Below, one piece after another: positions 4,201 through 52,193 of a DNA stretch of 64,000 bases. Within the stretch, counting starts at the first letter, position 1. Every line of letters starts with the position of its first letter. The stretch lies in UHGV virus genome UHGV-1351772. The stretch is one strand, 5' to 3'. A program made the position numbers and the translations under genes. This DNA is from a virus. Below the pieces are notes generated by a model. The model was not told where the DNA came from. It saw only the letters and a list, made by a program, of their open reading frames with translations, and made no database searches.

Positions 4201-7200
4201 GTGACTTTACCGAAGAAACTTTTAGGCTTCATTTCACCTAAAGCGGCTTCGTTGTTCGAGAAAGCACGTGAGTGGCTAAATGAGGTTCCAGAGGGCGCAG
4301 AGAAAACCCGTTTACAAAGCATGATTTCCCGTGTAACGGGAATGCCAGCGCGTTTGTGGAACAATGCAAAACGCGGGTTTGAGAAGCTCAAAGAGTTGGC
4401 TTCTGATAACCCTCTGACACGTTGGTGGCAGAACCGTAAGGAAGGGGGTTCTGGTGGTGGGTTTAGTGTGTTCTCATGGTCGAACGGCCGTAAAACTAAC
4501 CACATCTTAATCCGTATCTACAAACTCCTTAACCGGAGATTGCCAGGTGAACCAGAAGATGATACCTGGACAGAACAGATGGAGCGGAATACGGGAGCCA
4601 GTTCAGTTAAAGGATTATTCCAACGTGCTAAAGACATACGCGATGGGTTCCGTGAACATTTTCAGGGGTTCCGGGATTGGCGCGGTCGGATGCGTGACAG
4701 AATGTCCCGTTATCGCGGTGCGGTAGGCGATCGTCTTTCTCGTTGGGGCGGTACCGCACGTGGTTGGTTTGATCGTTTCCGTGGCCGTGCAAGCGATATG
4801 GTCGATACTTTCCGCGATCCGCGTTACGATATCGGCACACGTTATCGAATGGAGAGTCGTTTAGCAGGACGCGATGACGATGTTGCTGAGTTTTATCGTC
4901 AACACATCTACGCAAGAGGTAAGGTGTCTAAAACACGTATCATCGATGCGGCAAAAGAAGACTTAGACACCGTAACGGATAGCGCTGGACGTGTGATTAA
5001 TAAAGGGAAACAGAAAGCCCGTAGCGTTGGGTCAGCTTTACTGGAACGCCTGAACCGAATGGTTAATCTTCAGGAAATGTCATGGTTTAACACCATGCGT
5101 GATTCTGCGGAAAAAGCAGGTGCTTCGGATGGTTTGTTAAGAACTATGTTCAGTAAGTTCGGCCAACGCAATAAACCGCCTGCCAGTGATGAAAAACGTG
5201 ATTACTTCCAGTTCTTCCGACGCCGTCGTCGTTCTAAGGAAGAGGAAAAGGCTAAGAAAGAAGCCGAGAAGAAAGGTGGTAAGCGCGGGGTGATGGATTT
5301 CCTTAAAGGACTGCCGTTGGTAGGACCGATTGTGAGTATTTTAGGCACAGTAGGTTCAATCTTAGGTAAAGTCGCGAAATGGGGAATCTTTAAGCCGGTT
5401 GGGTTTGCAGGCAAAGCGTTGTGGAACGTTGGTAAGTTTGCTGTGACTCGTTTGGCTGTCCCTGCGGTGAGTGCTGTCGCGACGGCAGCATCTGCAGTGG
5501 TAACTGCGGTTGGCTGGCCGATTATCGGTTTGGTCGCTGCAGGCGCTGCGCTATCTTGGTTTGCATATAAAACTGCAACCCGTGTGAATGCTCAGTATTT
5601 GGATAACATGCGATTGGCACAGTACGGATTTAGAGATCACGATGAGTGGTCTTCCGACGATGGCGCAAAAGCACGTTATTTAGAAGACAACTTGAAACCG
5701 TACATCTCTTATACAGAGAATGGCCAAGCACAGTTGCGTGGTTTGTCCGGTGACGACGTGAAGAAACTGGCCGAAGGGTTTGGTACTAACGTAGAAGACA
5801 AAGGCGAAATGCTGGCGTTTAGTGCGTTTATGCTACAACGTTTTGTGCCGATCTATTTACGTTGGATTACGGCACTGAAATCCATGGATAATGATATCGC
5901 GTTAGCAGATGTCGGTAATCCTGCGAAAGTGTCGAAGGCAGACATGTTGAATATCTTCAACAAAATGAAGATGTCGAAAGATGCGCCTGCATTCCGTGCA
6001 TTAGAAGATCCCCGCAAGGTTAACCAAGGTTGGTTCTCTAAAGCGTGGGATTTCGTAACGTTTACCCCGGCCGAGTTTTTGTCAGGCGAAGAAGTCGTTG
6101 AAGCGCAAGAACGCGTGCTTCGTTCGATTAACATGCGTCGTGATGAAAAACGTAAGGATGTAAATGCTACAGGCGGTGTGGCCGAAGGACACAAAGTTGC
6201 TTCTGTGGCAGAATCGACCCAAGCGTTGGCTCAAGCGGATGCGGAACGCAACAAAGAAGTTGCGAAAGTCGAAGGTTGGGAAGACGGCACCGAACAAGTT
6301 CAGGTTCAAGTCGACTGGAGAAGCTTACCTAAAGAAACCGATCTCCGTGATTTGGAGTCCGTAAGGTTGAAAGCTTATGGTGCGGTGAGTATTACTCAAA
6401 CAACCCGTAACCTCTATACGCTCTTGGAACGTCAAGTGTTGCAAGACACCGATGTGAAAAGCTGTACGTATAAAGGCGACTGGAAACGTGCGATTGCGGT
6501 GATTGCGCCTGACGCCATTGGTGGGCCAAAAGAAGATCGGTACAAGAACTGGTTCTATAACCGCTTCTTACCTGTCTTCATGACGTACGTGGTTGGGGTG
6601 AAACGTTATGTCCCTGCTGCCGATCCGATGGACCTACGCGTTACGGGTGGGTTCTTGTATGAAATCGCACTGATGATGCGTGGTGCATACAACCTGAAAG
6701 GGGGTATTCGTCAGTCAGTGTGGGAGGTACCGTTTAACCCGTTAGGGGGAGACGCTAACACCGACGCCGGTTCAGTTGCAACGGAGTTAGAGAACCTGAA
6801 AGAACTGTCTAAGGAAGCTGATTTGGCAGTACGTAAAACGCTGCGTGCTACGCCTTCTGCGGGTTTCCGTGTGAACTGGCAGCGAAAAGATCGCGCGACT
6901 CAGATGTTCTTGACCGACGATGAGAAGGAGCAACCGTCTCGACCACAGATGAACACCTCCTCCTCTTATCGTGACCTATTGCAACCAGCGGCAAACGACG
7001 GTGGGAATTACGGCACACCAAACGATTTGGCCGGTGCTTACGGTCAGATGGGAGCTAAGAATTACGCTGCATTTACTACCGGTAACTTCGGCGTGAAACT
7101 TGGCGATATGCAAGACGGTGACTATAAAACGTTAGCGGCTAAGTATCCAATTTCAACGTTGGGTGACGGATTGAAGCCTAACTTGAATGCGGTTGCAGCA

Positions 7201-8337
7201 CTGATTACAGACGTAGCGAAGATGATGGGTGTTCCTCCAGCGTTAGCACTGGGAATGGCACAAGCAGAATCTGGGCTTAGATACGGTATCAAAGCTAAAG
7301 GAAGTTCTGCGGCTGGCTTGTTCCAGTTCATCAACGATACCTGGGGTGCGCAGATGAAAGCTTATGCGAGACGTTATGGTATCCCGCAAACCAACCAGTA
7401 TGACCCGTGGGCGAATGCTCTGCTTGGCGTCCGTCATATTCGTGATAATATCGAGAAAGCCAGAAAGGATTTAGGTGGTATCGATCCTCCAGGTGCAGCT
7501 GTTTACCTCTACCACTTCTTAGGACAAGGTGGCGGTAAGAAATTCCTGCAAGAATGGAAGCGTGATCCGAACGGGCCATCGTCGCGTGGTGCGTCGGCCG
7601 ATCAAATCGCGGCAAACAGCACAATTTTCTACAAGAATGGAAAATTGCGTAGTTTGGATGAAGTGCTCAACATCATGGGTGGTAAGATTGGTGCTGTAGG
7701 AACAAACGCGATCGCGGCTAACCAGGCATCGCTGAAAGACTTGACGACAGGCGTAACACCAATGCCGTCTTCCCCGGCTATCGCTGCAGGCGCTGCTAAC
7801 GATCCGTCTATCACAGGCCCGGCAGATAACCTGCCAGCCGCGAACGAGGCGAATCGCGACTCCGCTTTAGCAGACAAAGGCGCGATGGGTGCTGAAGATA
7901 TTAAAGCTGCAACTGGTGGTGGTCCGGCTGTGCCGAGTCCTGGCGGCGATGTCACGCCGAGCGATGCGTCAGTTGTTGTAGAGACGGTGGGTCAAAATGC
8001 ACGTGCTGATGGCCTGGCCGAAGAAGAGGTTGCTAAAGTAAAAGAAGGTGCTAGACAGCAGATGGAGAAATCGGCCCGTCCTGCACCAACGGTAACTTCC
8101 GATGCTCAGAGCGGTTCTACAGTGAACAGTGGTGATCCGATCAGTGTACAACAGCTGGCGGTTGCAAAAGAGTCTGCAGGCTATCTGAAAGAGATTGTAA
8201 CAATTCTTCGCCAGCGGCCACAGGCTATGCAAAACGGTCCGGCTAACCCGGCGTCAACCGCTCCGGGTTCGGCGTCACGTAACGTGTCAATAACTCAACC
8301 CGCGCCGCAACTCGACGTTAGTCGTAAATCAGCGTAA
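1261..8337 (+). CDS. Giant virion-associated protein (2358 aa) with lytic transglycosylase domain; tail lysin / tape-measure-like
   Basis: Single uninterrupted ORF. Long helical N-terminal half with Gly-rich and basic RKRRRKRKR segments, hydrophobic cluster about aa 1335-1440, SLT motif near aa 1980-2100, Ala/Pro/Gly-rich C-terminus. Size and domain order resemble phiKZ gp181-type tail lysins (from memory, not searched). Confidence 0.8.
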   Translation: MDDWDDFDEPPRQQDQSRNPVMDTFRAARKSALSTIWPENKRDQVILKGMPKPAAEAYEGYQNVKAAGQDILAHTKDEIEKTSRVVKMQARQLGPTLKRYLPESVTRKIDKWARNDQIDYGNYDPKQAMMDRELDSVFSGAPQTADQQREAQEGMVEDRLRDTIKDMKSDALFQTVIGIAKDVNLTTSLSRGVLLNVQRKQLELQYRTLFALQDIAKLKQDEFARNTPALEAIVKNTALPDYAKEEFSEIRWANVKRKAAEWMNPLHYADNFIGQIRENAKKKISNIFSDGRGILEQVLGMAQEDDFDMSDSSSLSPDRRNTNSRNKAAGFAGGWLAKRLLQPQIERLQNWTRGELEKNPEVMKRLQLAKYGFGNLSSISNSAIAGETSGPLADLFRLMHDLGLVNPLRRETLALDDRSAESLSAAAKFDRKAYLSITEVIPTLLSEINKSIRRGYGEHHDQVYDLTTRGMVDRKVIGNRVRKAVANDDQRKRLQTYINDTVDFIDKDKTLDRKTRQALADYIESRASEGKAFDVGSLLKDPMHMYRYMNANAVEAIQGVLEARSAELVGGHHELSNAISNKIAAIQSTIRARQDTVDAASVIYGENALRDSGIFKYDAKKDIFEVDKDINDPYTLFNDLSMGKTRSGRSLTREQEIQRKLQNGSALGDYLRRMGAGAEPSFEDKELSNVRGGGKGGRGRGLSARQLAAVLYGEKSTNFVELLSSRPDTNAGLEQQFDRLIDAVRKQPESSTVQDILKHVKNMDEEGILLASLGGSRDDGDESESSSDSGRKRRRKRKRIVLGETGLLRRWAGVLWDTGSGVGRFGKNLFLRGKDRLQALGGFIRGKFSGGSSEGPGVFSRLKGLVTGTLSTGWNSAVAFGKGVLGVRDIYDERGNVVLQGSRLEAGEYYQADPKTEKLIQLKTLDDIKLGRDIVDEAGNLILAAADLAAAGKLRFYKGGKVQALFQYISGKAGTAVNKAVTLPKKLLGFISPKAASLFEKAREWLNEVPEGAEKTRLQSMISRVTGMPARLWNNAKRGFEKLKELASDNPLTRWWQNRKEGGSGGGFSVFSWSNGRKTNHILIRIYKLLNRRLPGEPEDDTWTEQMERNTGASSVKGLFQRAKDIRDGFREHFQGFRDWRGRMRDRMSRYRGAVGDRLSRWGGTARGWFDRFRGRASDMVDTFRDPRYDIGTRYRMESRLAGRDDDVAEFYRQHIYARGKVSKTRIIDAAKEDLDTVTDSAGRVINKGKQKARSVGSALLERLNRMVNLQEMSWFNTMRDSAEKAGASDGLLRTMFSKFGQRNKPPASDEKRDYFQFFRRRRRSKEEEKAKKEAEKKGGKRGVMDFLKGLPLVGPIVSILGTVGSILGKVAKWGIFKPVGFAGKALWNVGKFAVTRLAVPAVSAVATAASAVVTAVGWPIIGLVAAGAALSWFAYKTATRVNAQYLDNMRLAQYGFRDHDEWSSDDGAKARYLEDNLKPYISYTENGQAQLRGLSGDDVKKLAEGFGTNVEDKGEMLAFSAFMLQRFVPIYLRWITALKSMDNDIALADVGNPAKVSKADMLNIFNKMKMSKDAPAFRALEDPRKVNQGWFSKAWDFVTFTPAEFLSGEEVVEAQERVLRSINMRRDEKRKDVNATGGVAEGHKVASVAESTQALAQADAERNKEVAKVEGWEDGTEQVQVQVDWRSLPKETDLRDLESVRLKAYGAVSITQTTRNLYTLLERQVLQDTDVKSCTYKGDWKRAIAVIAPDAIGGPKEDRYKNWFYNRFLPVFMTYVVGVKRYVPAADPMDLRVTGGFLYEIALMMRGAYNLKGGIRQSVWEVPFNPLGGDANTDAGSVATELENLKELSKEADLAVRKTLRATPSAGFRVNWQRKDRATQMFLTDDEKEQPSRPQMNTSSSYRDLLQPAANDGGNYGTPNDLAGAYGQMGAKNYAAFTTGNFGVKLGDMQDGDYKTLAAKYPISTLGDGLKPNLNAVAALITDVAKMMGVPPALALGMAQAESGLRYGIKAKGSSAAGLFQFINDTWGAQMKAYARRYGIPQTNQYDPWANALLGVRHIRDNIEKARKDLGGIDPPGAAVYLYHFLGQGGGKKFLQEWKRDPNGPSSRGASADQIAANSTIFYKNGKLRSLDEVLNIMGGKIGAVGTNAIAANQASLKDLTTGVTPMPSSPAIAAGAANDPSITGPADNLPAANEANRDSALADKGAMGAEDIKAATGGGPAVPSPGGDVTPSDASVVVETVGQNARADGLAEEEVAKVKEGARQQMEKSARPAPTVTSDAQSGSTVNSGDPISVQQLAVAKESAGYLKEIVTILRQRPQAMQNGPANPASTAPGSASRNVSITQPAPQLDVSRKSA
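5305..5570 (+). other. Hydrophobic/transmembrane-like segment cluster inside the giant protein
   Basis: GLPLVGPIVSILGTVGSILGKVAKWGIF...AVPAVSAVATAASAVVTAVGWPIIGLVAAGAALSWFAY: several consecutive hydrophobic helices. Confidence 0.5.
7198..7572 (+). other. SLT (family 1 lytic transglycosylase) domain within giant protein
   Basis: GMAQAESGLRYGIKAKGSSAAGLFQFINDTWGAQMKAYARRYGIP ... LYHFLGQGGG: E-S catalytic motif and GLFQF..TW pattern typical of lysozyme-like lytic transglycosylases. Confidence 0.7.
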
Positions 8338-20043: not shown

Positions 20044-20592
20044 TTAAATAGGACGTTCTAAAAGGTAGTGTTCAATCAACGTTTCCAACTCCCGGAATAA
20101 ATGCGCAGTTTGATTTACCAGCGCTTTGTCTTCGTCGGACTCCGGTTTAAGGAACGCCGATTCATAGGGTTGAATTAGCGCGAGTAATTTACCCAGCTTA
20201 TAAGCGGCAACCTCAGGACTGGACGTCCCAAAATAAGTGTCTAGCCATCGGTATTCCGCCAAGTCGTTTCGTTTATTTAAAGCGTCAGGTAATGGCAGCC
20301 ATTCGATTGAACTCCTGTTAATTGCTCGTTGGTATTCATTAATGAGAAATGCCAAACGTTGATAAACGAGGTCAATGTTATTGATACGCAATTCGAGGAA
20401 ACCGCGAAGGCTGGGACGAAAGGGTTCTTCATTTATGTTTAAAGGCAACGTAAGCAATTGTAAGCCGGTAAAGACTCTGACATAGGGGTTGTGGGTGTTC
20501 TTATGGAACTCCTGCTTCAGAGACTCTCTGAGGGCTTTTAAACGATTATTCTCTAACCGTTGTTTAAAACGAGTTATTATTCCTGTTAACAT
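20044..20592 (-). CDS. Hypothetical protein, 182 aa
   Basis: ATG 20592 with AGGAG SD; first gene leftward of a 72-bp divergent intergenic region. Confidence 0.6.
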   Translation of the reverse strand: MLTGIITRFKQRLENNRLKALRESLKQEFHKNTHNPYVRVFTGLQLLTLPLNINEEPFRPSLRGFLELRINNIDLVYQRLAFLINEYQRAINRSSIEWLPLPDALNKRNDLAEYRWLDTYFGTSSPEVAAYKLGKLLALIQPYESAFLKPESDEDKALVNQTAHLFRELETLIEHYLLERPI

Positions 20593-20620
20593 AATTCACT
20601 CCTAAAGAATGTCTCACGTA

Positions 20621-20630
20621 GATAATATCT
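20621..20630. promoter_or_regulatory. GATAATATCT element in divergent intergenic region (candidate -10-like promoter element)
   Basis: Exact 10-mer also at 29737 and 39226; lies 29-38 nt upstream of minus-strand ATG 20592 and 34-43 nt upstream of plus-strand ATG 20664. Confidence 0.35.
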
Positions 20631-20663
20631 GTCTGACTTCTTTTTGAAATTGAGGTAGTAAGA

Positions 20664-21128: not shown

Positions 21129-21804
21129 ATAAAGCGGCATCTCGTGGGTCGACACCGACCCACTCTGCCATAAACCGGATATGTTCCTTAAACGGGTTAA
21201 CCCCGTCTTGTTTGATTTGTTCAACCAATTCCCCGGTCAGTTCTGGTGTGAGCATGGCAGGGTGTGTGATGGTAAAGCTCGGAATCGGTTTTTTCAAGTG
21301 CGTAGCATTAAGCTTAATCCACTCGAACCAATCGTACATTATCCAGCAATCCCACGCCAACGACAATCTCCCCGGTGTGAGATCTTCTAACGACCAAGAC
21401 ACTAATTCAACTTGTACGTTATTGTAGTACATCCGAAACAGATTCAAAAAGGCTTGAAGTTCTTCGCCCGTTAAATCCGTATAAGGCCACGTATTGATGG
21501 TCAGAGTGGGTTTTTCAATTGGCGAATGCATTTCGATTTCAAGCAACATACACTCGAATTCGTTTTTCATTGTTGCCAATAATTCAGTAGGCTGCGCATT
21601 AATCAACGCGCGCTTATCCCGCTTCCGCCACACTTCATCCCATTTTTCAAATCCAAGTACGCCAGCCCAAGCTTCTGTATAGCGACGACGATAAACGTCG
21701 TAGTCTAGCAATGTTAAGCTTTCAGGCTTAACGGCTTTTACCCAACCTAAACGCGTATCAAATAACGTATCAATATCGATTAAGAAACGCCGAGATAATC
21801 TCAT
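21082..21804 (-). CDS. Hypothetical protein, 240 aa
   Basis: ATGA coupling with upstream gene. Confidence 0.55.
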   Translation of the reverse strand: MRLSRRFLIDIDTLFDTRLGWVKAVKPESLTLLDYDVYRRRYTEAWAGVLGFEKWDEVWRKRDKRALINAQPTELLATMKNEFECMLLEIEMHSPIEKPTLTINTWPYTDLTGEELQAFLNLFRMYYNNVQVELVSWSLEDLTPGRLSLAWDCWIMYDWFEWIKLNATHLKKPIPSFTITHPAMLTPELTGELVEQIKQDGVNPFKEHIRFMAEWVGVDPRDAALFSLARPAQDVQTPPS

Positions 21805-22469
21805 GACGGATGGCCTATGTTGTTACCGATATGCATCGCTTTTAGGTACGCCGACCACGTACGCGTTGCTTTAGAACTCGTTCGCTCCGCCCCAGGCAAA
21901 TCAATACGCCCTTTACCGGTTTGGCGTAGCGACTGATAGAAAGCACGTTGTAATGCGTCGTTACCACCACGCGCCCACAAGAACTCTTTCAGCGTCCAGT
22001 CGTGACCATCGGAATACATGATGTATGCTTCTGGGAAGGACACCCCAGATGCTTTGGAAGGACCAACGACTTGACCGGAGAGCTTATCGCGGACTTTGTC
22101 GTTTTTCGCAACCGCCATTTTCTTTTCTTGCATCTGTGTCTGACGACGGACAGGCAAGCGTAAGACTAAGTGAGGGTAACGAGTACGGTGATAGACACCC
22201 GTTTTTGGTTCTGTTAACCAGAGTCGTTGCTCCAGGTTTACCCCGAGAATTTTGCACACCTCGATATTGCGCAGGTGGTCAATTTCGACTTTACTTCCCA
22301 CCGGGTTGTAAATAGGTAAACCGTTACGAAGTCGATTAAACTGTTCGTCGGTCATTCGTGCGAAGGCTTTCTTCGCGGCTTCAGCATTAATGCCAGAAGG
22401 GTCTACCAACTTTAAGATTTGTAAGGCGTAGGCTTCCGCCTTTTTACGCCGTGCTGGTTCGAGTTTCAT
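21801..22469 (-). CDS. Hypothetical protein, 222 aa
   Basis: ATG 22469 with AAGGCGG SD. Confidence 0.55.
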   Translation of the reverse strand: MKLEPARRKKAEAYALQILKLVDPSGINAEAAKKAFARMTDEQFNRLRNGLPIYNPVGSKVEIDHLRNIEVCKILGVNLEQRLWLTEPKTGVYHRTRYPHLVLRLPVRRQTQMQEKKMAVAKNDKVRDKLSGQVVGPSKASGVSFPEAYIMYSDGHDWTLKEFLWARGGNDALQRAFYQSLRQTGKGRIDLPGAERTSSKATRTWSAYLKAMHIGNNIGHPS

Positions 22470-28422: not shown

Positions 28423-28965
28423 TTATACTCCTTTAGGTTGACCGTATTTTGATGACAGGTAGATGAGCTCGGCATGGCAGATTTTCTCAACTAACCCGAG
28501 TGTTTCAAGGAAAATATCCCGGATACGGGACATTGTTTCGTTGGTAAGAATATCGCTCCAACACGTTGTGTCTATTATATCCGTCGTTGAAGATTGCCGC
28601 TGCAATATGGCGACATACACTTCGTCGAGGGTATCTGGAGCATTATTCTGTAAGTAATGCGCGGCATGTAGAAAGGCTTTCTCAAGAATCAGGTGAATAT
28701 CCGTATCGGGATCAGTTACCCGCACCAAATGTGGGTATGTCATGGCCGAATGGATTTTTCGCTCTAACTGTTCAATGAGATTATTCACCATCGCTTCTGA
28801 ATCCAGGATAGTAATTTCGACCCCACTGTGTTCTTCAGAAATCTTGTTCTCATGTACTGCTATCGCGTCGTGCAGTTCAAACGCAACGCGGCTACGCATC
28901 CCACTTAACAGTTTGTTTAATTTACCCCGTGACTCGCTGAGTGAGAAATCGATAAGTATTTTCAT
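28423..28965 (-). CDS. Hypothetical protein, 180 aa
   Basis: TAATG overlap with upstream gene. Confidence 0.55.
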   Translation of the reverse strand: MKILIDFSLSESRGKLNKLLSGMRSRVAFELHDAIAVHENKISEEHSGVEITILDSEAMVNNLIEQLERKIHSAMTYPHLVRVTDPDTDIHLILEKAFLHAAHYLQNNAPDTLDEVYVAILQRQSSTTDIIDTTCWSDILTNETMSRIRDIFLETLGLVEKICHAELIYLSSKYGQPKGV

Positions 28966-29708
28966 TATGCATATTCCTGATAAATTGCCCGACCCCGATC
29001 TTCTCGAATCTGGCAGTAAGTTACAACAGCACCATTAGGGATTTGTGCTCCGCTGTCTTCAAGGTAAATAACGCCCGTAGCTTCACAGAGATAAAACGAC
29101 CACAATCGTGAGATACCAAGCCGTGCGTTCTCGTAGTCACTGAATGGCCAGAAACCACAGTGAAGCTCAACATAGTCTCCACGTTCTATCCCGTAAGCAA
29201 TCAATTCTTTTTCCCACAACGTACATTCGGCGTCGTAAATCGAAAACCAGAAACCAACGAGGTTCTTTGTTTGTTTAACGTTGAGCAAGTCGTTATAAAT
29301 GGGGAAGAGTGCTTTATTGAAACTTTCTAACATCTCTGGAGAGAATAGAAAATTCATGTAGTATTCTAGCCATTGATAAACGGCCTCCCAGACATCTTCA
29401 GAAGAGAAATGTTCGAATACAGCGTCATCGCAATCGTAGTTATCGAAGATCCCTGAGAGATCTATTTCGACTACGCCGCGAAGGTCAAAGTTTCGGTTGG
29501 TATTGACAGCCTCGATAACTTCGGAGATGAGACGAGTAAAGACGATTGTGCAAGCCGTCTGTGCGGTATAAAAGAATTCTCCTTGTACGGTTGACCACTT
29601 CGGGTCCTTCAAGTGTTCATTGAAGTATTGTGGCCAAATTTTATAAAAGATTCCCTCGAACAACGAGGGATTGATACGTTGTAATTGAGGGACATAAACT
29701 TTTAGCAT
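28965..29708 (-). CDS. Hypothetical protein, 247 aa
   Basis: ATG 29708 with GGAG SD; GATAATATCT element 29-38 nt upstream. Confidence 0.55.
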   Translation of the reverse strand: MLKVYVPQLQRINPSLFEGIFYKIWPQYFNEHLKDPKWSTVQGEFFYTAQTACTIVFTRLISEVIEAVNTNRNFDLRGVVEIDLSGIFDNYDCDDAVFEHFSSEDVWEAVYQWLEYYMNFLFSPEMLESFNKALFPIYNDLLNVKQTKNLVGFWFSIYDAECTLWEKELIAYGIERGDYVELHCGFWPFSDYENARLGISRLWSFYLCEATGVIYLEDSGAQIPNGAVVTYCQIREDRGRAIYQEYA

Positions 29709-29736
29709 TTTAATAACTCCAATGGTGTTACACCTG

Positions 29737-29746
29737 GATAATATCT
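29737..29746. promoter_or_regulatory. GATAATATCT element (candidate promoter -10 region for gene starting at 29708)
   Basis: Exact 10-mer; same spacing to the minus-strand ATG as at 20621. Confidence 0.35.
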
Positions 29747-30413
29747 ATCTAAGAATATTTTTAGCGAAAAAAGGATCGACTGTAAACTCCCTCACCTGTG
29801 AGTCATAACCCGAATGTATCTGATCGCTACTGAGCAAATACCCGTCTAAATCGTGTGGAAGAATCCAAGAATCGCCTTGTTTAAAAATACCATAATCTGT
29901 TGTTCCAGAGGAAAAAACGATTTCCTCTGGAGACGAATAGATGTGGCGTAAGGCAAGATCTGACGGCTTTAACACGATTAATCGAACGGGATGTTGACTG
30001 ACTGCCTCTTTAATAAACTGTTCACGATTAAACCAAATTATTTTTTCGGGGTAAGTTTCGAATTCAGCCCATGTCCGCGTGATAACTAATTTGGAAATCT
30101 TTCTCAATTCTTCAGAATGCTCTGCGTAGCCGATACACTCCTTGCGCACTTCATGATTTTCTACCGATGCTGTGAATTTTTGGAATAGGTGTTGTTGGAA
30201 AAAGCCGTTCTCCGGGATATCACAACCCGCGTTGTATAGTGCAATGATCTCCCACAACAACGAAAGAGAAAACACAAATGCTAACTTTTCCACAACTTCC
30301 CAATCTTCGGAGTAAGGGGCTTTAAAGCCCCAATACTGCCGTGCGTTATACATAAAGTGAGTTTGTAAAAACCGAGGGGCTTTTGACAAGACCTCACTAT
30401 AAACGATCAGCAT
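29745..30413 (-). CDS. Hypothetical protein, 222 aa
   Basis: ORF in array; 7-nt overlap with upstream gene. Confidence 0.55.
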   Translation of the reverse strand: MLIVYSEVLSKAPRFLQTHFMYNARQYWGFKAPYSEDWEVVEKLAFVFSLSLLWEIIALYNAGCDIPENGFFQQHLFQKFTASVENHEVRKECIGYAEHSEELRKISKLVITRTWAEFETYPEKIIWFNREQFIKEAVSQHPVRLIVLKPSDLALRHIYSSPEEIVFSSGTTDYGIFKQGDSWILPHDLDGYLLSSDQIHSGYDSQVREFTVDPFFAKNILR

Positions 30414-41226: not shown

Positions 41227-41406
41227 CTAATTCCGCCATTCGCATTCGCGTTGACGCCAAATTGAACCCCACGATAGTTTAATCAGATAAGATGAAACTA
41301 CCCATAAAATCATCACCACACAAAACATGACATAAAGAACCGCTAGAATGGACATGAAGCCAAACCCTGCCGCATCCACAATATGACGGAACCAATCAGT
41401 TTGCAT
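41227..41406 (-). CDS. Small membrane peptide, 59 aa
   Basis: ATG 41406 (AAGGAG upstream); MQTDWFRHIVDAAGFGFMSILAVLYVMFCVVMILWVVSSYLIK...; overlaps stop of ATPase gene. Confidence 0.5.
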   Translation of the reverse strand: MQTDWFRHIVDAAGFGFMSILAVLYVMFCVVMILWVVSSYLIKLSWGSIWRQRECEWRN

Positions 41407-43900
41407 AAACAATTTTTACTCCTTCGTTATACACCGCAGGCAATGTCACCCCTTCCGGTTCGATGACACAGTACGATGCTTCATTAAGTTTAGAATGAAC
41501 CTCGGCTTCGTGGGAGACTACCAACAGTTGAGAAAATTCTCCCGAGTTTGCTAACGTTTTAATAAAGCCGACCAGGTTGTTACGGTGCTCCTCATCCATG
41601 CCTTCCGAAGGCTCATCCAAAAGCAATGGAAACTGATGCAACTTCAGCGCTTTGTACGCAGTCAGCCTGAACATCAGATTAAATATCGCACGCTGCGCCT
41701 TAGACCCTTTACGCACGTCAGGAACAGGCTCAGGATGCGTTTTTAGCTGGACAGGAAAAGTATAATCCAAATCGCCGTCAGTGAGGTCACAAGGCATAAC
41801 GCGCATGGGGTACGTCCAGACCTGTTCGATATAACGCGTCATTAACTCTGTGATTCTAACGATAGCGTTGTAAAAATACTTTCTAAGTACACCCTTTTCT
41901 GGAGAGAAGGCTTGAATCATCAGTTTGTTATTGAACTGCTGGGCTTGTAAGTCAGCAAGTTCGCGTTCCAAACTGTTGAGCTGATTCAATTCATTTTCCA
42001 TCTGACGATAACGTTCGCGTGCGGTTGTAAAAGCATCCAGCTTCCCTTCTCGTGCACGTAAGAGTTCCTCGACGACCGTATTTGTCAACGTAACCTTAAC
42101 ATCACTCTCTAACCGTTCGAATAACGCACTGAAATCATCTACAGCACGTTTAACATTCACCAGATAGGTAAGTGTCGTGTTAGCCAGTTCGTGCTCTCTA
42201 CGACGCATTGAGAGCATTTCTGTGGCTTTACCTAATCGTGACTGTTGGAAAGCGATTTTCTGTTGTAAAGCACCATCGACGTTACCAACGGCCGCCACGG
42301 CATCCTGCCATTCTTTTTCCGCCTTCACTAACCGTTGTCGGGTTTCATGGTACTCAATAGCAGAGTACAACTCGCTGTCAAACGCTGCGCATAGACTCCC
42401 GAACTGTTCACGTGATTCTGTGAAAACGTTACGTTCTTGCAAACGCTTAAAGAACATGCTCAATACCGGGTCCTTTGAATACGTCAGTACAATCTCACGA
42501 ACCTGCCGCATATAAGTTACATCAGATTCTAATTCAACACGATCGCGTAATAAGGTCTCTAACTGCGTTTGCAGTTCCGTGCGCTGCTGTTGTTGTCCGC
42601 GAATCGAAGACTCAAGTTCAGGTAAAGAACGCGTAACACCAGGCCGAAACTTAAACCGACACTGCGGGCAATCCACTTCCGCTGTTTCTAAGTAGTGATT
42701 ACGTTCGTGATTTAAATTCTGTAAAACGTTCTCCACTCGCTGGAGTCTATCCCGCAACCCTGCGGTTTTTTGATCCATCACCAGAAGCCGTTCTTCCAAA
42801 ACATTGAGTTTTTCAGTTGAATGAATTGCGTCCAGTGTTGTTCCTAACCGTTGCCCCCAGACACGCGCATCGGTAGCCGCACGAAGTTGGTCTAAATTGA
42901 CGTTGTCGTTAAATAGACCCGGAAAGAGATGCTCGGTGTCCCATTTGGTAAGTAACTCACGTAAACGCGCCAATGTATTCTTGAGACCTTCGTGATTCCG
43001 CATCAGGTAGTCTTGTCGTGTCGATTCATCCATCAATAACGACAAGTCTTTATTCAACATCGATACCTCTGTTTCAGTAGACACGACAGCTTCGCGGGCC
43101 GTCGCTTCGTTTTGTCGCGCGGCCAGTATCTGTTCATCAGTAGGCAGTCCACCACGATGTTGTAATATTGCGTCGATGGTTGGGCCCAAGCTGTTTAATA
43201 ACGCTTGGATTGTTTCGATGGTGACGGCACGATTTAATCCTGGCAACTGTTCGATTTCTCGGTTCAGTTCACGTAAATCCGATTCCAAACCTTTTAATCT
43301 CGTCGCCAACTGCTGCCGTTCTTCCTCGTTCTCAATAACACGCGTCCGCAATTCGGCGATTTTACGGCTGGTGATTTCAATACCCCCATTTAAGGCAGTA
43401 AGGTTTTTACGTAAACGTTGATAAAACCCTAACGCGTAGGTGAGGTCAGAGGTACTTAAACGGTAAAACCACTTACGACGCAGTTCCGTTCCTGCATCCG
43501 TTAAAAGCACTTCTCCGTTCAGTAGTTCTTTAATCTCTTTTGTAATGCCTGTGATTTCTTCAACACGGGAGTTGTAGACTTTCGCATTACCTTGCTCGAC
43601 GATCTTTGCCCCCGTGGTCAAGTTCTCAATATCACAAACCAGTGAGTTCCCTTTACGGGCAACTTTGAATCGATAGCGTTGATCACCAACTAAACAGTAG
43701 TTCGTGTAAGAACCGCCGTCCCTGAATTCGGTTTTGGCCGGTGCTAAGGGTAAGAATACAGACAGTAGACTGGTTTTCCCGCAACCGTTTCCACCCAGGA
43801 TAATTGTTGTTGGGGACTGGATAGTGAAATCGAATGTTTCAATTTCATGTAACCCCATCCCCGTAAAACCTTTGAGTATAATGCGTTCAACTTTTAGCAT
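41396..43900 (-). CDS. SbcC/Rad50-like SMC-family ATPase with coiled coil and CxxC zinc hook
   Basis: Start moved to ATG 43900 (GGAGGTG SD). Walker A GGNGCGKTSLL, long coiled coil, hook EVDCPQCRF, signature-like SKAQR, Walker B LLLDEP, H-loop VVSHEAE. Confidence 0.75.
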   Translation of the reverse strand: MLKVERIILKGFTGMGLHEIETFDFTIQSPTTIILGGNGCGKTSLLSVFLPLAPAKTEFRDGGSYTNYCLVGDQRYRFKVARKGNSLVCDIENLTTGAKIVEQGNAKVYNSRVEEITGITKEIKELLNGEVLLTDAGTELRRKWFYRLSTSDLTYALGFYQRLRKNLTALNGGIEITSRKIAELRTRVIENEEERQQLATRLKGLESDLRELNREIEQLPGLNRAVTIETIQALLNSLGPTIDAILQHRGGLPTDEQILAARQNEATAREAVVSTETEVSMLNKDLSLLMDESTRQDYLMRNHEGLKNTLARLRELLTKWDTEHLFPGLFNDNVNLDQLRAATDARVWGQRLGTTLDAIHSTEKLNVLEERLLVMDQKTAGLRDRLQRVENVLQNLNHERNHYLETAEVDCPQCRFKFRPGVTRSLPELESSIRGQQQQRTELQTQLETLLRDRVELESDVTYMRQVREIVLTYSKDPVLSMFFKRLQERNVFTESREQFGSLCAAFDSELYSAIEYHETRQRLVKAEKEWQDAVAAVGNVDGALQQKIAFQQSRLGKATEMLSMRRREHELANTTLTYLVNVKRAVDDFSALFERLESDVKVTLTNTVVEELLRAREGKLDAFTTARERYRQMENELNQLNSLERELADLQAQQFNNKLMIQAFSPEKGVLRKYFYNAIVRITELMTRYIEQVWTYPMRVMPCDLTDGDLDYTFPVQLKTHPEPVPDVRKGSKAQRAIFNLMFRLTAYKALKLHQFPLLLDEPSEGMDEEHRNNLVGFIKTLANSGEFSQLLVVSHEAEVHSKLNEASYCVIEPEGVTLPAVYNEGVKIVYAN

Positions 43901-43927
43901 ACCCACCTCCATAAAGACGGAGTGTGG

Positions 43928-43973
43928 TGTAAAAAGAAAAAAATAAAGAAAGGGAGAACCCGAAGGTTCTCCC
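43928..43973 (-). terminator. Strong rho-independent terminator (minus strand) upstream of ATPase gene
   Basis: GGGAGAACC-CGAA-GGTTCTCCC hairpin followed on minus strand by UUUCUUUAUUUUUUUCUUUUU. Confidence 0.75.
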
Positions 43974-43978
43974 AAACG

Positions 43979-46512: not shown

Positions 46513-46905
46513 TTATTCAGCAGGGCGATTCAAGGTAACACGTCCGATTAATTCGGCGTTGTGAAAGAAGTCCACAGCGGTATAGTTACCAACGGATAGC
46601 GGATGGATACTAACTGACATTACTTTTGGTTGTTCGCAGGCGATATCCGTCAGACGTTGGTAGACTTGCGCACGGGTGTCAGCAATGAGTAACCCCGTAC
46701 ACGCTTCACCACGCACTAAACGATAAACTTGCAGTTTACCGAAACTGCGCATTAACGTAGGCGTCTCATCCGGGTTGATAATCGGTGAGTCAGGAGCCGG
46801 TTCGTAATAGCGGACATCCGAATCACCGAAAGCATAAGTGCCAGTAATTCCGACCGCACAGAAAATAATGATGGTATAAAGTATAGTTCTGATATTCATT
46901 TTCAC
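46513..46905 (-). CDS. Small secreted protein 4
   Basis: M(K)MNIRTILYTIIIFCAVGITGTYA signal; start GTG 46905 or ATG 46899. Confidence 0.55.
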   Translation of the reverse strand: MKMNIRTILYTIIIFCAVGITGTYAFGDSDVRYYEPAPDSPIINPDETPTLMRSFGKLQVYRLVRGEACTGLLIADTRAQVYQRLTDIACEQPKVMSVSIHPLSVGNYTAVDFFHNAELIGRVTLNRPAE

Positions 46906-46927
46906 GCACTCTAAAAAAGATTAATAG

Positions 46928-47389
46928 TTATTTGTTAGGACGGGTGTGTCCACAGTTCTGGAAGAAAGTTTCAGACAGACGTTCGCCTTCTACGGTAAAG
47001 TTAGCGGTGTCGTTACCATTGATACTCACACTGAAAGTTTTGGCATTACCGATAGCATTAACGAAAGCAACCCAAGCGTGTTCTGCTTTGTCACTACCGT
47101 CCACGGTAGGGATGTTATAGGTCTTGCCGTTTACGACAATATCCAACGTGTTATCTTCCGCGTTAGTTGCACCTACGGGTTCACCGTAATACCAAACCAT
47201 GTGACCGTAAAATTTGCGATTCGCAGTTTCTGTGTCACAGTTGATAGACAGTCCGTTTCCGGCGGTGTCTTCAATTTCGTAAACTGCCTGGCCAGGGTTT
47301 TGTATTTGTTCCCAGCTGTTGATAGCGGCGTGTGCGCTATTGAGGCCGAAAGTTAAAATGGTTATTAAGAAAGTGATAAAGGTTTTCAT
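46928..47389 (-). CDS. Small secreted protein 5
   Basis: MKTFITFLITILTFGLNSAHA signal; AAGGAG SD. Confidence 0.65.
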   Translation of the reverse strand: MKTFITFLITILTFGLNSAHAAINSWEQIQNPGQAVYEIEDTAGNGLSINCDTETANRKFYGHMVWYYGEPVGATNAEDNTLDIVVNGKTYNIPTVDGSDKAEHAWVAFVNAIGNAKTFSVSINGNDTANFTVEGERLSETFFQNCGHTRPNK

Positions 47390-47435
47390 TGAAATGCTCC
47401 TTCGGGTTATGGGGAAATTCCCACAAATTATGAAA

Positions 47436-47807
47436 TTAAATAACTGTGTTGGGTAATGCTTTAATCTGTGTATAACTATCTCCGATACCTCTTATCATTT
47501 CCAGACGCTCTTCTGTAGAAAGGCTTTGGTTAATGTCTTTGTCAAGATTGAACAGTGTCAAGAGTTTTGCAATTGCAACCGTCAAGTTGTCGGACAGCTC
47601 GTTGTTTTTACGCCATTCTTCGTTACGGAAAATAGAGATAAGGTCTTTCGCCTGGCCTTCAGCGTGCGGTTTGGCTAACTGCGCGTCACGCTGTTCGATA
47701 AGGTATGCTTCGTTAGTAAGTAAACGTTTCAGGTTTTCTGGGTTAGTGGCAGCGCGAGTAACGATCATTAATACAACAAACGGGTCTTTAAATAATTCGT
47801 TTTTCAT
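47436..47807 (-). CDS. Hypothetical protein, 123 aa
   Basis: ATG 47807 with AGGAG SD; conserved hairpin plus 21-mer module upstream. Confidence 0.6.
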   Translation of the reverse strand: MKNELFKDPFVVLMIVTRAATNPENLKRLLTNEAYLIEQRDAQLAKPHAEGQAKDLISIFRNEEWRKNNELSDNLTVAIAKLLTLFNLDKDINQSLSTEERLEMIRGIGDSYTQIKALPNTVI

Positions 47808-47860
47808 CTTTAGTTCTCCTAAAATGGTTTTCGTTAAGTGAGAGCTTTTGTACTCTCACC

Positions 47861-47881
47861 TAAGTAATATATATCTGAAAT
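47861..47881. promoter_or_regulatory. Conserved 21-mer TAAGTAATATATATCTGAAAT preceded by hairpin (47838-47859)
   Basis: 20 of 21 nt identical to 52147-52167; contains GTAATATATA; lies 54 nt upstream of minus gene start 47807. Confidence 0.45.
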
Positions 47882-47896
47882 TATTTTTAATAATAA

Positions 47897-47932
47897 CGAA
47901 CAAAAAATAAAAGGTGGGGGTAAACCCCCACC
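47897..47932 (-). terminator. Rho-independent terminator (minus strand)
   Basis: GGTGGGGG-TAAA-CCCCCACC hairpin with U-run on minus strand. Confidence 0.7.
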
Positions 47933-47936
47933 GATG

Positions 47937-48515
47937 TTATACATCGAACCGGTACTGCCGGGAGTTAATGAGGAACTCGGTATTCAGCTCAATCCATTCG
48001 AGTAAATCGCCCAACGGTAATCGGTTTGGGTTTTCTAACTCAATAGACGCTACCGGATAAGAGTTTACTAATTCCGTAATTGCCTCAATACCCTCTTGCG
48101 TTCCATCGTCTTCTAAGGTGATTGTAAACGGCATATCGGTACGATCCGCATTAGGATTGTACAAACTGACTTTCGTTGCTTGGACAAACGCAGTCAGGTC
48201 GTCACGTATAATGCGTGTATCAGGCGCTAGAACTACCCAGAGATGTTGTCCAGGCTGGAGTTTACGTTTTGCGTAGTTTAAGAACGGATTAGCCGGTAAG
48301 CTTTCCAAACCACTGCAAATGTTCCGTAAATGAATACCTCGTGGGTCTTTATAGTCCACGCTGAAGATTCCTACCGGTTCCTTCGCTGCCTGTTTTATCA
48401 GAAAGACCAATACCGTGTCCGCTCTTTCTGGTAAGGAAAGCTCTATTCCCTCAAGCTCCCCATCGACGAGGTTTTCCAACCAAACGTCTTTTCGCATTTC
48501 TATTAATCGGTACAC
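47937..48515 (-). CDS. Hypothetical protein, 192 aa
   Basis: GTG 48515 with GAGGTGG SD. Confidence 0.55.
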   Translation of the reverse strand: MYRLIEMRKDVWLENLVDGELEGIELSLPERADTVLVFLIKQAAKEPVGIFSVDYKDPRGIHLRNICSGLESLPANPFLNYAKRKLQPGQHLWVVLAPDTRIIRDDLTAFVQATKVSLYNPNADRTDMPFTITLEDDGTQEGIEAITELVNSYPVASIELENPNRLPLGDLLEWIELNTEFLINSRQYRFDV

Positions 48516-48527
48516 GGTACCACCTCA

Positions 48528-49301
48528 CTATTGATTAAGTTTTACATCGGCAATAAACAGCAATTGTTTACCATGTTGCTGCACTTCTTTCCAACCCAGT
48601 TTCATAGCAGCGTCAACAACATCTAACATGCTGTAACGGGACATCAACGCGGTTGATTTTGTTCCTGACATTAAATAAAGTGGCTCATTAGGGCAACGGT
48701 CTCGAGCATCAGGAAGTTCTCGAATAACCACTGAGCCTTCGGGTACGGTAACAACATGAATCACGGTAAATGGTCTCTTGTGTGTTAAGTAGATACGGAA
48801 CCCAACGTGTTCAGATTCATGAAAGATTTTCTTCACGACCACATCTTTCAGTGTCGTCTGAACATCAGCCCCAGGTAATATCGTGGTTTCACGTGAAACG
48901 AAGCAACGACTATTTTCAATCGTGGAGAAATAATTACGTATCGGCAAACTGGCGTTATGATCGCGCAGTTTTTTGCTCAGTAGATCGAAGTTCAGTTCTT
49001 TAACTTTTTCTAACCACTCTTTGGCTTGTTGAATGTAATAACTACCGACAGCGCGATAAGTTAATACCTTACCTGTGCTCACTTGCCAAAGCTTGATGCT
49101 TAGTGAATTTGGCTTATAGCGACGATACTCACCCCGCGTATGGTTGATGCGCTCGTAACGCTCTACATCATCAACGGGTGCAGATTCGACCGATTGTAAT
49201 TGCAGCGTACGATCTAATCTATCGGCAAATAGTAGTGATGTTAGCGAACCTTCGATCATATACGGTTCGGTTTTAAAGATATCGTCTAAATGGACTTTCA
49301 T
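48528..49301 (-). CDS. Paralog family member 1 (C-terminal GW..V...G.QLLF motif)
   Basis: 257 aa; ends KLGWKEVQQHGKQLLFIADVKLNQ; N-terminus MKVHLDDIF similar to member 4 MRELLDDIF. Confidence 0.65.
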   Translation of the reverse strand: MKVHLDDIFKTEPYMIEGSLTSLLFADRLDRTLQLQSVESAPVDDVERYERINHTRGEYRRYKPNSLSIKLWQVSTGKVLTYRAVGSYYIQQAKEWLEKVKELNFDLLSKKLRDHNASLPIRNYFSTIENSRCFVSRETTILPGADVQTTLKDVVVKKIFHESEHVGFRIYLTHKRPFTVIHVVTVPEGSVVIRELPDARDRCPNEPLYLMSGTKSTALMSRYSMLDVVDAAMKLGWKEVQQHGKQLLFIADVKLNQ

Positions 49302-49309
49302 TTCTATTT

Positions 49310-49368: not shown

Positions 49369-50520
49369 TTAAATGTTGGCAACAAACAACAGTTGGCTGC
49401 CGTATTTTTGCACGTCAGCCCAACCGTAGTCTTTCCCGATTATAGGTAGATGTAAAGCATCCAGCTTCTCGTCTTTCGCCTTCAGTTTCGCCACTAACGC
49501 ATTGGACTCCTCAGCACCGAGCAGTAATGCGGGTTCTTTTTCAGTACGTCCTTCTGCGGTCGGGAAGAAATCGTAATAGCTGCGAGTAGGTAAATCGACA
49601 GAAAAACTACGATTGCCTATTGTGATGAAGAACGCAACTCCTTCACAGTTAACATCTACACTACACGACCACCCCGCCTCTGTTAAAAGGTCTTTTAACA
49701 GACACCACACTTTAAGTTGGTTCTTAGAAAGTGTACGGTAGATAGCAAGATGGTCAGGAAGTAAATGCACCGCCATAATCATGTTTTCACATTTCTCGTC
49801 AAGCAACCTTGGATGTTGAATCGGGAACAATAATTCACTGATACCCACGTTATCAATTTTGTTAACAAAATCAGTTAATTCATCTTTTAAGGTACGCACG
49901 GATTTTTCTCCTTCGACTTCAATAATCTGGTGGGGTTCGCCGCTAATTAAAATGTGGTAAACGATGTCGTCGGTAGAACGGTAAGTGAGTTTGATAGCTT
50001 TATCACTTAACATTTCGTAGCGGAAGAAACTTTCGTACCAAGTTGACCCGAAATCGTTTCGTGTAAGTTCCTGCTCAACTTTGATGGTTTTTGCTTCAAA
50101 GCCGATTAACCCGCTTAATAACGCGAGTTCTGGTTTAGTTAAAATGCCCGCACCGTGAAAGGGCACTTTCTCAAGCTGAAAACATAAATTACTGACTTTA
50201 CCACTTGGGAAGACCTTAAACATAATCTTCCGGCTGCTACTCTTTTCCCTAACAACGAGTTTACGGTAATTTAGTCCACAATTTGTGTAAACCGCGAACT
50301 TGTAACCTTCAATTTCTTCATCGTAAGTACAGACATCGACAGGTGCGATAATCTCATTGTATTCAGTAAGTACACAGCAGCCCAAGTTATAACCAAACAA
50401 CTCACGTTGTAATGAAGACTCGATGGTTAAGCTTGGTAGTGACCAAACCCGATTATAGCATCTGTCCATCAGTTCTTTTAGGATCTTGGCATGTCCTGGT
50501 TTAGAAATAATATTACGCAT
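49369..50520 (-). CDS. Paralog family member 2
   Basis: 383 aa; ends KDYGWADVQKYGSQLLFVANI; AAAGGAG SD. Confidence 0.65.
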   Translation of the reverse strand: MRNIISKPGHAKILKELMDRCYNRVWSLPSLTIESSLQRELFGYNLGCCVLTEYNEIIAPVDVCTYDEEIEGYKFAVYTNCGLNYRKLVVREKSSSRKIMFKVFPSGKVSNLCFQLEKVPFHGAGILTKPELALLSGLIGFEAKTIKVEQELTRNDFGSTWYESFFRYEMLSDKAIKLTYRSTDDIVYHILISGEPHQIIEVEGEKSVRTLKDELTDFVNKIDNVGISELLFPIQHPRLLDEKCENMIMAVHLLPDHLAIYRTLSKNQLKVWCLLKDLLTEAGWSCSVDVNCEGVAFFITIGNRSFSVDLPTRSYYDFFPTAEGRTEKEPALLLGAEESNALVAKLKAKDEKLDALHLPIIGKDYGWADVQKYGSQLLFVANI

Positions 50521-51874: not shown

Positions 51875-51968
51875 GATTTACTCGCTAATCCCAATGAAGG
51901 GAAGGCTATTATTATGGATTGTAAAAGAGGTATAAGGAAGTCACTACGTTCCTCTGGGAAGAGTATGT

Positions 51969-52035
51969 CGGTATACTCCGTATACCTCCGCTATTTATAT
52001 CCGTATACATAATGCCCCTACCCCTACCGGTATCC
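51969..52035. repeat. Iterated palindromic GTATAC-core elements (c[cg]GTATAC x3 plus ccGGTATCC) in divergent intergenic region
   Basis: cgGTATACtccGTATACctccgctatttatatccGTATACat...ccGGTATCC; GTATAC is self-complementary. Confidence 0.5.
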
Positions 52036-52113
52036 CGAGTAGCAGAATAAAGGGTCATAATGTAATTTTTTAGTAACCTTTAACGAAAGGTACTAAAAGG
52101 GTAACGTGTCCGT

Positions 52114-52167
52114 AGGGACTGAACTGGTACTTCAGTCCCTATTCACTTAAGTAAAATATATCTGAAA
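52114..52167 (+). promoter_or_regulatory. Hairpin (AGGGACTGAA...TTCAGTCCCT) followed by conserved 21-mer TAAGTAAAATATATCTGAAAT, upstream of plus-strand tail module
   Basis: 21-mer ends 27 nt before ATG 52194; near-identical copy at 47861. Confidence 0.5.
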
Positions 52168-52193
52168 TCAATTCCGATCTAAGGAACGTCCCG

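Follow-up and report, generated by a model that had tools for sequence, protein, structure and literature searches.

According to a review, all the jumbo phages endowed with RNA polymerases possess a conserved AT-rich motif of about 10 nucleotides (nt) near position -10, located before presumed early operons (PMC7598289); conserved -10, -20 and -30 regions have also been described in this promoter family (PMC11512511). The early promoters of phage AR9, mapped by differential RNA sequencing (dRNA-seq) and primer extension, correspond to AAATATATATTAT-(6N)-G+1, and in phiKZ and phiR1-37 early transcription starts 6 nt past the consensus (PMC5312081). A different organization is that of the promoter-early stem-loops (PeSLs) of T4-like phages, i.e., repeated cassettes made up of a stem-loop terminator, an early promoter and a Shine-Dalgarno sequence (PMC2839356, PMC4122927). 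The element analyzed here is a 21-mer adjoining an inverted repeat, present in two copies (copy 1 and copy 2) in a stretch of 64,000 nt of the virus genome UHGV-1351772 (hereinafter, the window), where it had been described as a plus-orientation module within a minus-strand gene array. The element is best interpreted as a promoter cassette of the early type, ordinary but well defined, belonging to an SPN3US-like jumbo phage and of a kind already known; judging from their likeness to the promoters mapped in other jumbo phages, both copies are probably minus-strand early-class promoters of the phiKZ-related jumbo type, most likely read by the phage virion polymerase.

On sequence grounds, the window is assigned to a phiKZ-related jumbo phage of the SPN3US/Erwinia group harboring its own multisubunit polymerases. 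This assignment is based on a virion protein of 1440 amino acids (aa; 54957-59279) about 54% identical to that of Salmonella phage SPN3US and its relatives, on a gene order colinear with (and inverted relative to) the SPN3US region 150.8-212.3 kb, and on two genes encoding beta-like polymerase subunits. The one at the left edge is divergent from a tail-fibre gene of 2358 aa (1261..8337), and the same arrangement is found in SPN3US at 212.3 kb. The virion polymerase of SPN3US is an essential packaged enzyme made up of five subunits (PMC5694885).

Sequence, strand and conservation of the element

When the window is read on the plus strand, each copy consists of a hairpin followed by the 21-mer (Table 1), the hairpin of copy 2 being TAGGGACTGAA-CTGGTAC-TTCAGTCCCTA. 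The module and its nearly identical second copy are present as in the original prediction, which had placed the 21-mer of copy 2 at 52147-52167, one position off. Allowing up to three mismatches, only these two matches to the 21-mer exist in the window, and none was obtained in 100 shuffles. On the minus strand the similarity extends to a 26-mer, ATTTCAGATATATWTTACTTARGTGA, running from 47881 to 47856 in copy 1 and from 52168 to 52143 in copy 2; both copies of the 26-mer stand 5' of minus-strand genes, and AGATATATWTTAC is found in both. The analysis also bore out that no credible plus-strand gene lies 3' of 47881, that the minus-strand order at copy 1 is motif, hairpin, AGGAG and the ATG at 47807, and that the reverse complement holds a TATATATTAC box resembling early promoters of jumbo phages. 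The plus orientation has to be abandoned: both copies share the strand of the genes they precede, and thus no orientation paradox exists. The original prediction had assumed that copy 2 drives the plus-strand gene 52194, a baseplate assembly gene; since the orientation was taken from copy 2, which sits at a divergent junction, the apparent "wrong-way" arrangement is an artefact.

Table 1. Coordinates of the promoter elements and of the associated features in the window.
Feature	Coordinates	Strand	Remarks
Copy 1 inverted repeat, GTGAGAG-CTTTTGTA-CTCTCAC	47838-47859	plus-strand letters	
Copy 1 21-mer, TAAGTAATATATATCTGAAAT	47861-47881	plus-strand letters	
Copy 2 21-mer, TAAGTAAAATATATCTGAAAT	52148-52168	plus-strand letters	20/21 identical to copy 1
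Weight-matrix sites	47852-47896, 52139-52183, 29726-29770, 20610-20654	minus	
Copy 1 putative promoter, -34 to +4	47854..47891	minus	ATTAAAAATAATTTC AGATATATATTAC TTAGGT G(+1, 47857) AGA
Copy 2 putative promoter, -34 to +4	52141..52178	minus	ATCGGAATTGATTTC AGATATATTTTAC TTAAGT G(+1, 52144) AAT
Weaker variant, TTCTTAGATAGATATTATCCAGGTGT	29730..29755	minus	5' of gene 29708..28965; 8 mismatches, 32.5 bits, 0 in shuffles
Weaker variant, AAGTCAGACAGATATTATCTACGTGA	20614..20639	minus	5' of gene 20592..20044, divergent junction; 7 mismatches, 28.7 bits, 0 in shuffles
Copy 1 predicted 5'-terminal RNA stem-loop, GAGAGU-ACAAAA-GCUCUC	47840..47857	minus	from predicted +1
Shine-Dalgarno, AGGAG	47820..47816	minus	start codon ATG 47807..47805, gene 47807..47436
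Gene 47807..47436	47807..47436	minus	123 aa, function unknown (phrog_27024); first gene of copy 1 unit
Intrinsic terminator of upstream gene 48515..47937	47903..47932	minus	from terminator scan
Copy 2 stem-loop, UAGGGACUGAA-GUACCAG-UUCAGUCCCUA	52113..52141	minus	11 bp; +4 to +32 of the predicted transcript
Predicted 270-nt structured leader or non-coding RNA	51875..52144	minus	copy 2 predicted start site to ATG 51874
RNA polymerase beta-like subunit, partial	1..~1150	minus	off left edge; phrog_2986, E 5e-167
RNA polymerase beta-like subunit	21801..22469	minus	phrog_3233

The first 50 kb of phiKZ contain TATATTAC seven times on the plus strand and never on the other one; in all seven cases it is located just 5' of a gene and is followed by a G 6 nt later, and one of the seven genes, gp54, has a mapped early start site (PMC8244752). 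As in the phiKZ sites, a G lies exactly 6 nt past TTAC in both window copies; since the TATATTAC-(6N)-G core is common to the window motif, the predicted +1 positions are 47857 and 52144 on the minus strand. An AT-rich, TATATTAC-like element near -10 is found in copies 1 and 2, in 13 SPN3US sites, in 61 IMG/VR sites and in the 7 phiKZ sites. The 61 IMG/VR sites are the non-redundant outcome of a pattern scan of SPN3US/Erwinia-type contigs, after the removal of chance coding matches; for this purpose, G was excluded at one position of the pattern, which otherwise matches a conserved coding motif (...FEDIYYVGEVK...) by chance. Positions of these sites not fixed by the pattern are conserved as well (-34 A, -32 T, -29 to -27 AAA, -23 T, -21 T, -20 C, +3 G and +4 A), so that the promoter element spans -34 to +4, and the positions from -34 to -20 of copy 1 agree with the consensus of the 61 sites. 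The additional conserved A/T positions near -20 and -30 of the window-type sites can be compared with those reported previously (PMC11512511, PMC8244752). A literature search with TATATTAC and similar strings retrieved irrelevant primer matches only.

The string AGATATATATTACGTAGGTGA is also located inside a conserved coding region (...DPNFEDIYYVGEVK...) of many small marine phage contigs of IMG/VR (L013-L217). This is a chance coincidence with the promoter motif, which can swamp pattern searches.

The comparison of the region 46900-49400 with 50,697 phage records gave a single DNA match, 47852-47907, i.e., the motif region, whose counterparts in phiEaH2, Stratton, Asesino and SPN3US-like phages lie between genes and have no annotation; a more sensitive search disclosed the motif at 250 places in 67 records, with several sites per genome. 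The refuting condition set in the original prediction, i.e., only two copies genome-wide, does not overturn the element as a regulatory motif, given that relatives contain from 4 to 7 strict copies plus weaker variants and that the window itself has four sites according to a weight matrix. Throughout the SPN3US genome, the 13 good sites are all on the plus strand, intergenic and located 50-135 nt 5' of a plus-strand gene, and the sites 7385 and 15609 lie at divergent junctions, as window copy 2 does. In every IMG/VR contig with at least two sites, all of them are on a single strand. When each of the 61 sites was inspected for a Shine-Dalgarno sequence and an open start codon within 90 nt, using symmetric 200-nt flanks, they were found on the motif strand in 55 cases (median 50 nt) and in the opposite direction in 7, five of which are copy 2 orthologues having the divergent baseplate gene. 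A perfect G+C-rich hairpin with a T-rich tail precedes 25/61 sites (41%) within 100 nt, versus 34/2000 random windows (1.7%), and the tails of the terminators of related sites (TTTTATTTTTTGT) resemble the conserved phiKZ terminator motif (PMC10914365). The gene-sense order is the same in SPN3US, phiEaH2 and the window: stop codon, G+C-rich hairpin and T-run, about 20 A/T-rich bases, ATTTCAGATATATATTACYTAGGTGA, short hairpin, Shine-Dalgarno sequence and ATG.

A weight matrix constructed solely on the SPN3US sites recognizes four sites and no more in the window, each of them lying on the minus strand before minus-strand genes, and none in 20 shuffles; copy 1 scores 49.6 bits and copy 2 38.4 bits. 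All four window sites, like the 13 of SPN3US, are intergenic and co-oriented with the downstream genes. The two weaker ones belong to a variant motif class, CAGAYAGATATTATCYAGGTGW, seen six times in SPN3US. One of these SPN3US variant sites, 15609, stands at the head of an array containing a gene for a beta subunit of RNA polymerase. In the window, the site at 29755 precedes a series of minus-strand genes, among them the one for a polymerase subunit (22469..21801).

The hairpin at the predicted start site

In the gene sense, the hairpin begins where transcription is predicted to start. Folding of the 34 nt that begin at the predicted +1 gives a mean minimum free energy (MFE) of -6.5 kcal/mol and a mean z of -2.4 (55 sites), vs. 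-2.6 for a control segment located 60 nt further downstream. The first paired base coincides with +1 in 35/54 sites, with 35 distinct 5' arms. A hairpin occupies the same place in most of the related sites, with stems of 5-11 base pairs (bp), loops of 3-11 nt and unrelated sequences. Chimeras built from 5' and 3' halves of different sites fold worse than the native sites, with about half of the stability lost (-3.4 vs. -6.5 kcal/mol, p = 2e-10), and in the 11-bp stem of copy 2 compensatory double changes affect 3/11 pairs, with 100% of cells paired among four orthologues. Since the chimeras fold worse, the copy 2 stem covaries and the 5' arms differ from each other, the hairpin is under selection for pairing rather than for sequence, and most likely it is a 5'-terminal RNA stem-loop. 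The copy 1 leader, whose predicted length is 50 nt (the family median being about 50 nt from the motif edge), has a folding energy of -11 kcal/mol and a z of -3.6. The seven phiKZ sites have no such hairpin (mean z -0.46 vs. -2.4), and for this reason it appears to be specific to the SPN3US/Erwinia/window clade. A scan for intrinsic terminators did not call the 47838-47859 hairpin on either strand, and a plus-strand terminator-promoter module was rejected because no T-run follows the hairpin.

On the whole, the following scenario can be proposed. A multisubunit polymerase carried in the virion would enter the cell with the DNA and read both copies from a promoter extending from about -34 to +4, formed in copy 1 by the A/T-rich ATTAAAAATAATTTC, the core AGATATATATTAC, six bases and an initiating G. 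At copy 1, the terminator at 47932..47913 would halt the transcription coming from the upstream genes, and a new transcript, covering gene 47807..47436 and the small genes that follow, would start at the promoter. Copy 2 would head the entire minus-strand array at the divergent junction, with the 270-nt structured leader transcribed first. The hairpin, lying 3' of the 21-mer in the transcript sense, would be the first part transcribed, so that the mRNA would open with a stem-loop at its very 5' end. It is known that 5'-terminal stem-loops, such as those of the ompA and T7 gene 10 leaders, stabilize mRNAs in E. coli; by analogy, the most likely role of the hairpin would be the protection of the early transcript from 5'-end-dependent decay.

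Alternative explanations

The most serious rival is a host sigma-70 early promoter, as in T4, in which TATATT would serve as the -10 box, preceded at a distance of about 17 bp by (T)TGATT as the -35 box. The family consensus (G/T at -35, A at -34, T at -33 and -32, TATATT from -14 to -9) can indeed be read as a moderate promoter of this type, with 4/6 and 5/6 matches and a 17-bp spacer; the phiEaH2 site has TTGATT-17-TATATT, and host polymerase opens the infection in many phages. However, a sigma-70 scan gave no match at copy 1 or copy 2, with matches over the region at background level, and the would-be -35 box of copy 1, ATTATT, agrees at 2/6 positions. Moreover, the best-conserved positions (CAGATA from -20 to -15, AC at -8/-7, TA at -5/-4 and GTGA from -2 to +2) fall outside the hexamers, and the variant class alters the first T of the would-be -10 box (GATATT) while keeping its flanks. 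Also the TATATTAC-6N-G core, which marks phiKZ sites, where the host polymerase is reportedly not needed for early transcription, and the essential five-subunit polymerase packaged by SPN3US (PMC5694885) argue against it, as does the attribution of early transcription in this family to the virion polymerase, so that a sigma-70 promoter is considered unlikely. A similarly low probability is attributed to a promoter of the non-virion phage polymerase, i.e., of the middle or late class, even though the phage encodes both polymerase sets, the class assignment depends on timing data, and the promoters of some polymerase and structural genes of 201phi2-1 belong to a class that would not be expected for them (PMC11512511). 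Middle and late motifs of phiKZ-type phages are short and weak (TATG, or AT-rich at -24) and bioinformatically unfindable, the long and highly conserved AT-rich motif being the early one (PMC7598289); in addition, the core agrees with the AR9 and phiKZ early sites, and the genes downstream of the window copies are small and of unknown function, not virion genes.

The original prediction had favored either an operator working in both orientations or a plus-strand promoter driving an antisense or non-coding transcript into 47937-48515. The (AT)n core is self-complementary and, at copy 2, the plus-strand gene 52194 does begin 26 nt beyond the motif, but the dyad symmetry is limited to ATATATAT, i.e., to the ATATAT core, which is not what an operator would require; furthermore, all four window sites are on the minus strand, related contigs use one strand each, the spacing to the start codons is fixed and the gene-start test is strongly asymmetric (55/61 vs. 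7/61). In the plus direction, copy 1 is followed directly by the terminator in reverse complement and by antisense gene sequence, nothing conserved being present there, and no support emerged for an antisense transcript into 47937-48515, so that this hypothesis can hardly be sustained. Very improbable as well, if slightly less so, is an RNA processing site within a long polycistronic transcript, or a DNA-hairpin promoter with the start after the hairpin, as in N4, whose virion polymerase recognizes promoter hairpins. A conserved sequence beside a stem-loop is the anatomy of some RNase sites; nevertheless, at the divergent junctions of copy 2 and of SPN3US 7385 and 15609 no upstream co-directional transcript exists to be processed, and the terminators preceding 41% of the sites are equally at odds with processing. 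Stems and loops of variable length and unrelated sequence are unlike a fixed recognition hairpin, and the polymerases of this phage are multisubunit rather than N4-type.

Besides the sigma-70-like reading of the consensus, some other points weigh against early promoters read by the virion polymerase. The start site, the timing and the polymerase are assigned by analogy with phiKZ, AR9 and phiR1-37, and the literature yielded no transcript data or transcription-start maps for any SPN3US-like phage. In the 61-site set, eighteen positions were prescribed by the pattern used for the search, and hence their invariance is not independent evidence. The 64-kb window has two strong and two weak sites only, and 6/61 sites, copy 2 among them, have no nearby start codon. 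Lastly, in the closest relative (L211) an A-A mismatch in the copy 1 stem lowers its stability from -8.3 to -3.0 kcal/mol, which means that the hairpin is not under absolute constraint.

The two loci and their relationship to known cassettes

The terminator upstream of copy 1 is a stem-loop, GGTGGGGG-TTTA-CCCCCACC (47932..47913; 8 pairs, 7 of them G-C), followed by the T-rich tail TTTTATTTTT (47912..47903) on the minus strand, and lies 22 nt 5' of position -34. Copy 1 is syntenic with the SPN3US site 165682, and the orthologues of gene 47807..47436 in IMG/VR relatives have the same promoter 5' of them. Further small minus-strand genes are located 3' of this gene, as far as the SbcC-like gene 43975..41396; the genes 3' of both copies are small and of unknown function, the plus-strand gene 52194 encoding a baseplate protein.

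Copy 2 is kept at the same divergent junction in five relatives, and the Shine-Dalgarno region of the baseplate gene on the other side of the junction (ATG 52194) is partly shared with its upstream half. The 270-nt leader predicted downstream has an MFE of -85.9 kcal/mol and a z of -4.44, with 0/200 shuffles as stable. It includes a non-coding block of 123 nt (51932-52054) that is almost invariant among relatives, with a 2-nt indel and no conserved open reading frame (ORF), whereas the neighbouring protein of 123 aa is merely 57-60% identical among the same relatives. In the block, the inverted repeat GGTATAC-GGA-GTATACC overlaps a second one, GGAGTAT-ACCGAC-ATACTCT. An ORF of about 25 aa (MSTEKKSGLDEVIELFKRYNPAIPR), which the relatives have between the 5' hairpin and the block, is missing in the window phage. 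The leader matched no Rfam family or tRNA, the best weak match being rli47 (E = 0.57, 15 bits vs. a gathering score of 200), and it gave no match by BLAST against GenBank phages.

The comparison with the known systems reveals both shared and distinctive traits. Like the early promoters of phiKZ, 201phi2-1, AR9 and phiR1-37, the window sites have a long conserved AT-rich element near -10 with a core TATATTAC / ATATATTAT and a G after 6 nt, conserved A/T positions near -20 and -30, and an intergenic location before non-structural genes, often behind a terminator; the phage also encodes split multisubunit polymerases, as phiKZ-related phages do. Unlike phiKZ, where the flanks are AAACAG and TAACTTGA, the window clade has CAGATA upstream and YTAGGTGAGAG downstream, and most of its sites begin with a covarying stem-loop at +1 that the seven phiKZ sites do not have. 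The window cassettes share with PeSLs the small size, the repetition between small genes of unknown function and the joining of a terminator to a promoter; however, PeSL promoters are of the sigma-70 type and read by the host polymerase, whereas the window core is of the phiKZ-early type with no sigma-70 match, and an additional stem-loop is present in the transcript leader.

As far as the hairpin is concerned, T7 phi10 offers a parallel, i.e., a phage-polymerase promoter leading into a purine-rich start (GAGAG here, GGGAGA in T7) that forms the 5' arm of a flush hairpin. T7 uses a single-subunit polymerase with an unrelated promoter sequence, and the stabilization of transcripts, which has been measured for T7 and ompA, is for the window hairpin an inference. 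In the favored interpretation of the element as an early promoter, a virion-delivered polymerase would read early genes and a hairpin would be associated with the promoter, as in N4. Unlike in N4, where the hairpin is a conserved DNA structure upstream of the start (stem of 5-7 bp, loop of 3 nt) used by a single-subunit enzyme, in the window it is located 3' of the conserved box and varies in sequence and in stem and loop lengths.

A possible case of exchange between cassettes has also been found. The copy 1 promoter, hairpin and leader (47816-47885, from about -28 to the Shine-Dalgarno sequence) are identical, apart from a 2-nt indel, to a cassette at 730-830 of L143, which precedes an unrelated gene (MNFTKLDYT...) elsewhere in the contig of a close relative. 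In sister phages, the hairpin and leader of the orthologues of the copy 1 gene are not the same (GAGCGTTGTAGAATTACACGC...). The picture, which recalls PeSLs, is that expected if promoter cassettes undergo gene conversion or are exchanged with each other; being a single case, it only suggests a cassette-mediated recombination. More speculatively, and with a rather low probability, the clade, unlike phiKZ, might possess self-contained cassettes composed of a terminator, a virion RNA polymerase (vRNAP) promoter, a +1 hairpin and a conserved leader, in which the hairpin would be a selected early-mRNA signal, the nearly identical cassettes would act as recombination points and copy 2 would give an early RNA of about 270 nt, conserved and highly structured, endowed with its own function. 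If so, the +1 hairpin could shield early mRNAs against the RNases of the host, or act as a tag by which they are handled or exported from the early-infection vesicle, and a PeSL-like system moving or converting gene leaders would be built on a polymerase other than sigma-70.

From a practical viewpoint, what seemed a wrong-way regulatory module is replaced by a usable annotation, consisting of four predicted promoters (47857, 52144 and the two weaker ones) and of an explicit -34 to +4 promoter model for an uncultivated SPN3US-like phage and its relatives. This helps to recognize early genes, among which functions in host takeover and anti-defence may be sought, provides templates for in vitro work on the virion polymerase and draws attention to a 5' hairpin apparently peculiar to the clade. 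Three aspects deserve further attention, namely the presence of this hairpin at +1 across the clade, the hint of an exchange between cassettes and the structured leader with its conservation.

Some minor observations concern the surroundings of the two copies and their relatives. A second clean intrinsic terminator, GCCGCG-CTTTAGT-CGCGGC followed by TTTTGTT, is located on the minus strand at 49324-49342, within the copy 2 array and between genes 50520..49369 and 49301..48528, and no motif copy lies 3' of it. The IMG/VR contig 3300029126_000001 is a near-identical relative of the window phage. This sequence (IMGVR_UViG_3300029126_000001; 225,000 nt) contains window-type loci together with loci nearly identical to contig 3300045988_113438, and two diverged versions of one gene 57 kb apart; it may be a chimeric assembly or a bin of two related phages, which makes it unfit as a clean genome-wide census.

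The terminator 47913-47932 of the window has the loop TTTA, in place of which the near-identical IMG/VR relative (L008, L211) has TAAA, with unchanged stem arms. The two loops are the reverse complement of each other, which is the signature of a flip within a palindrome. In SPN3US, the promoter at 165682 begins 4 nt past the upstream stop codon, and in the region 165682-165780 the promoter and its 5' hairpin are followed, before the gene, by a full intrinsic terminator (GGCTACC-TTCG-GGTAGCC and a T-run). This extra terminator could be a promoter-proximal attenuator, or the terminator of the upstream gene placed 3' of the promoter.

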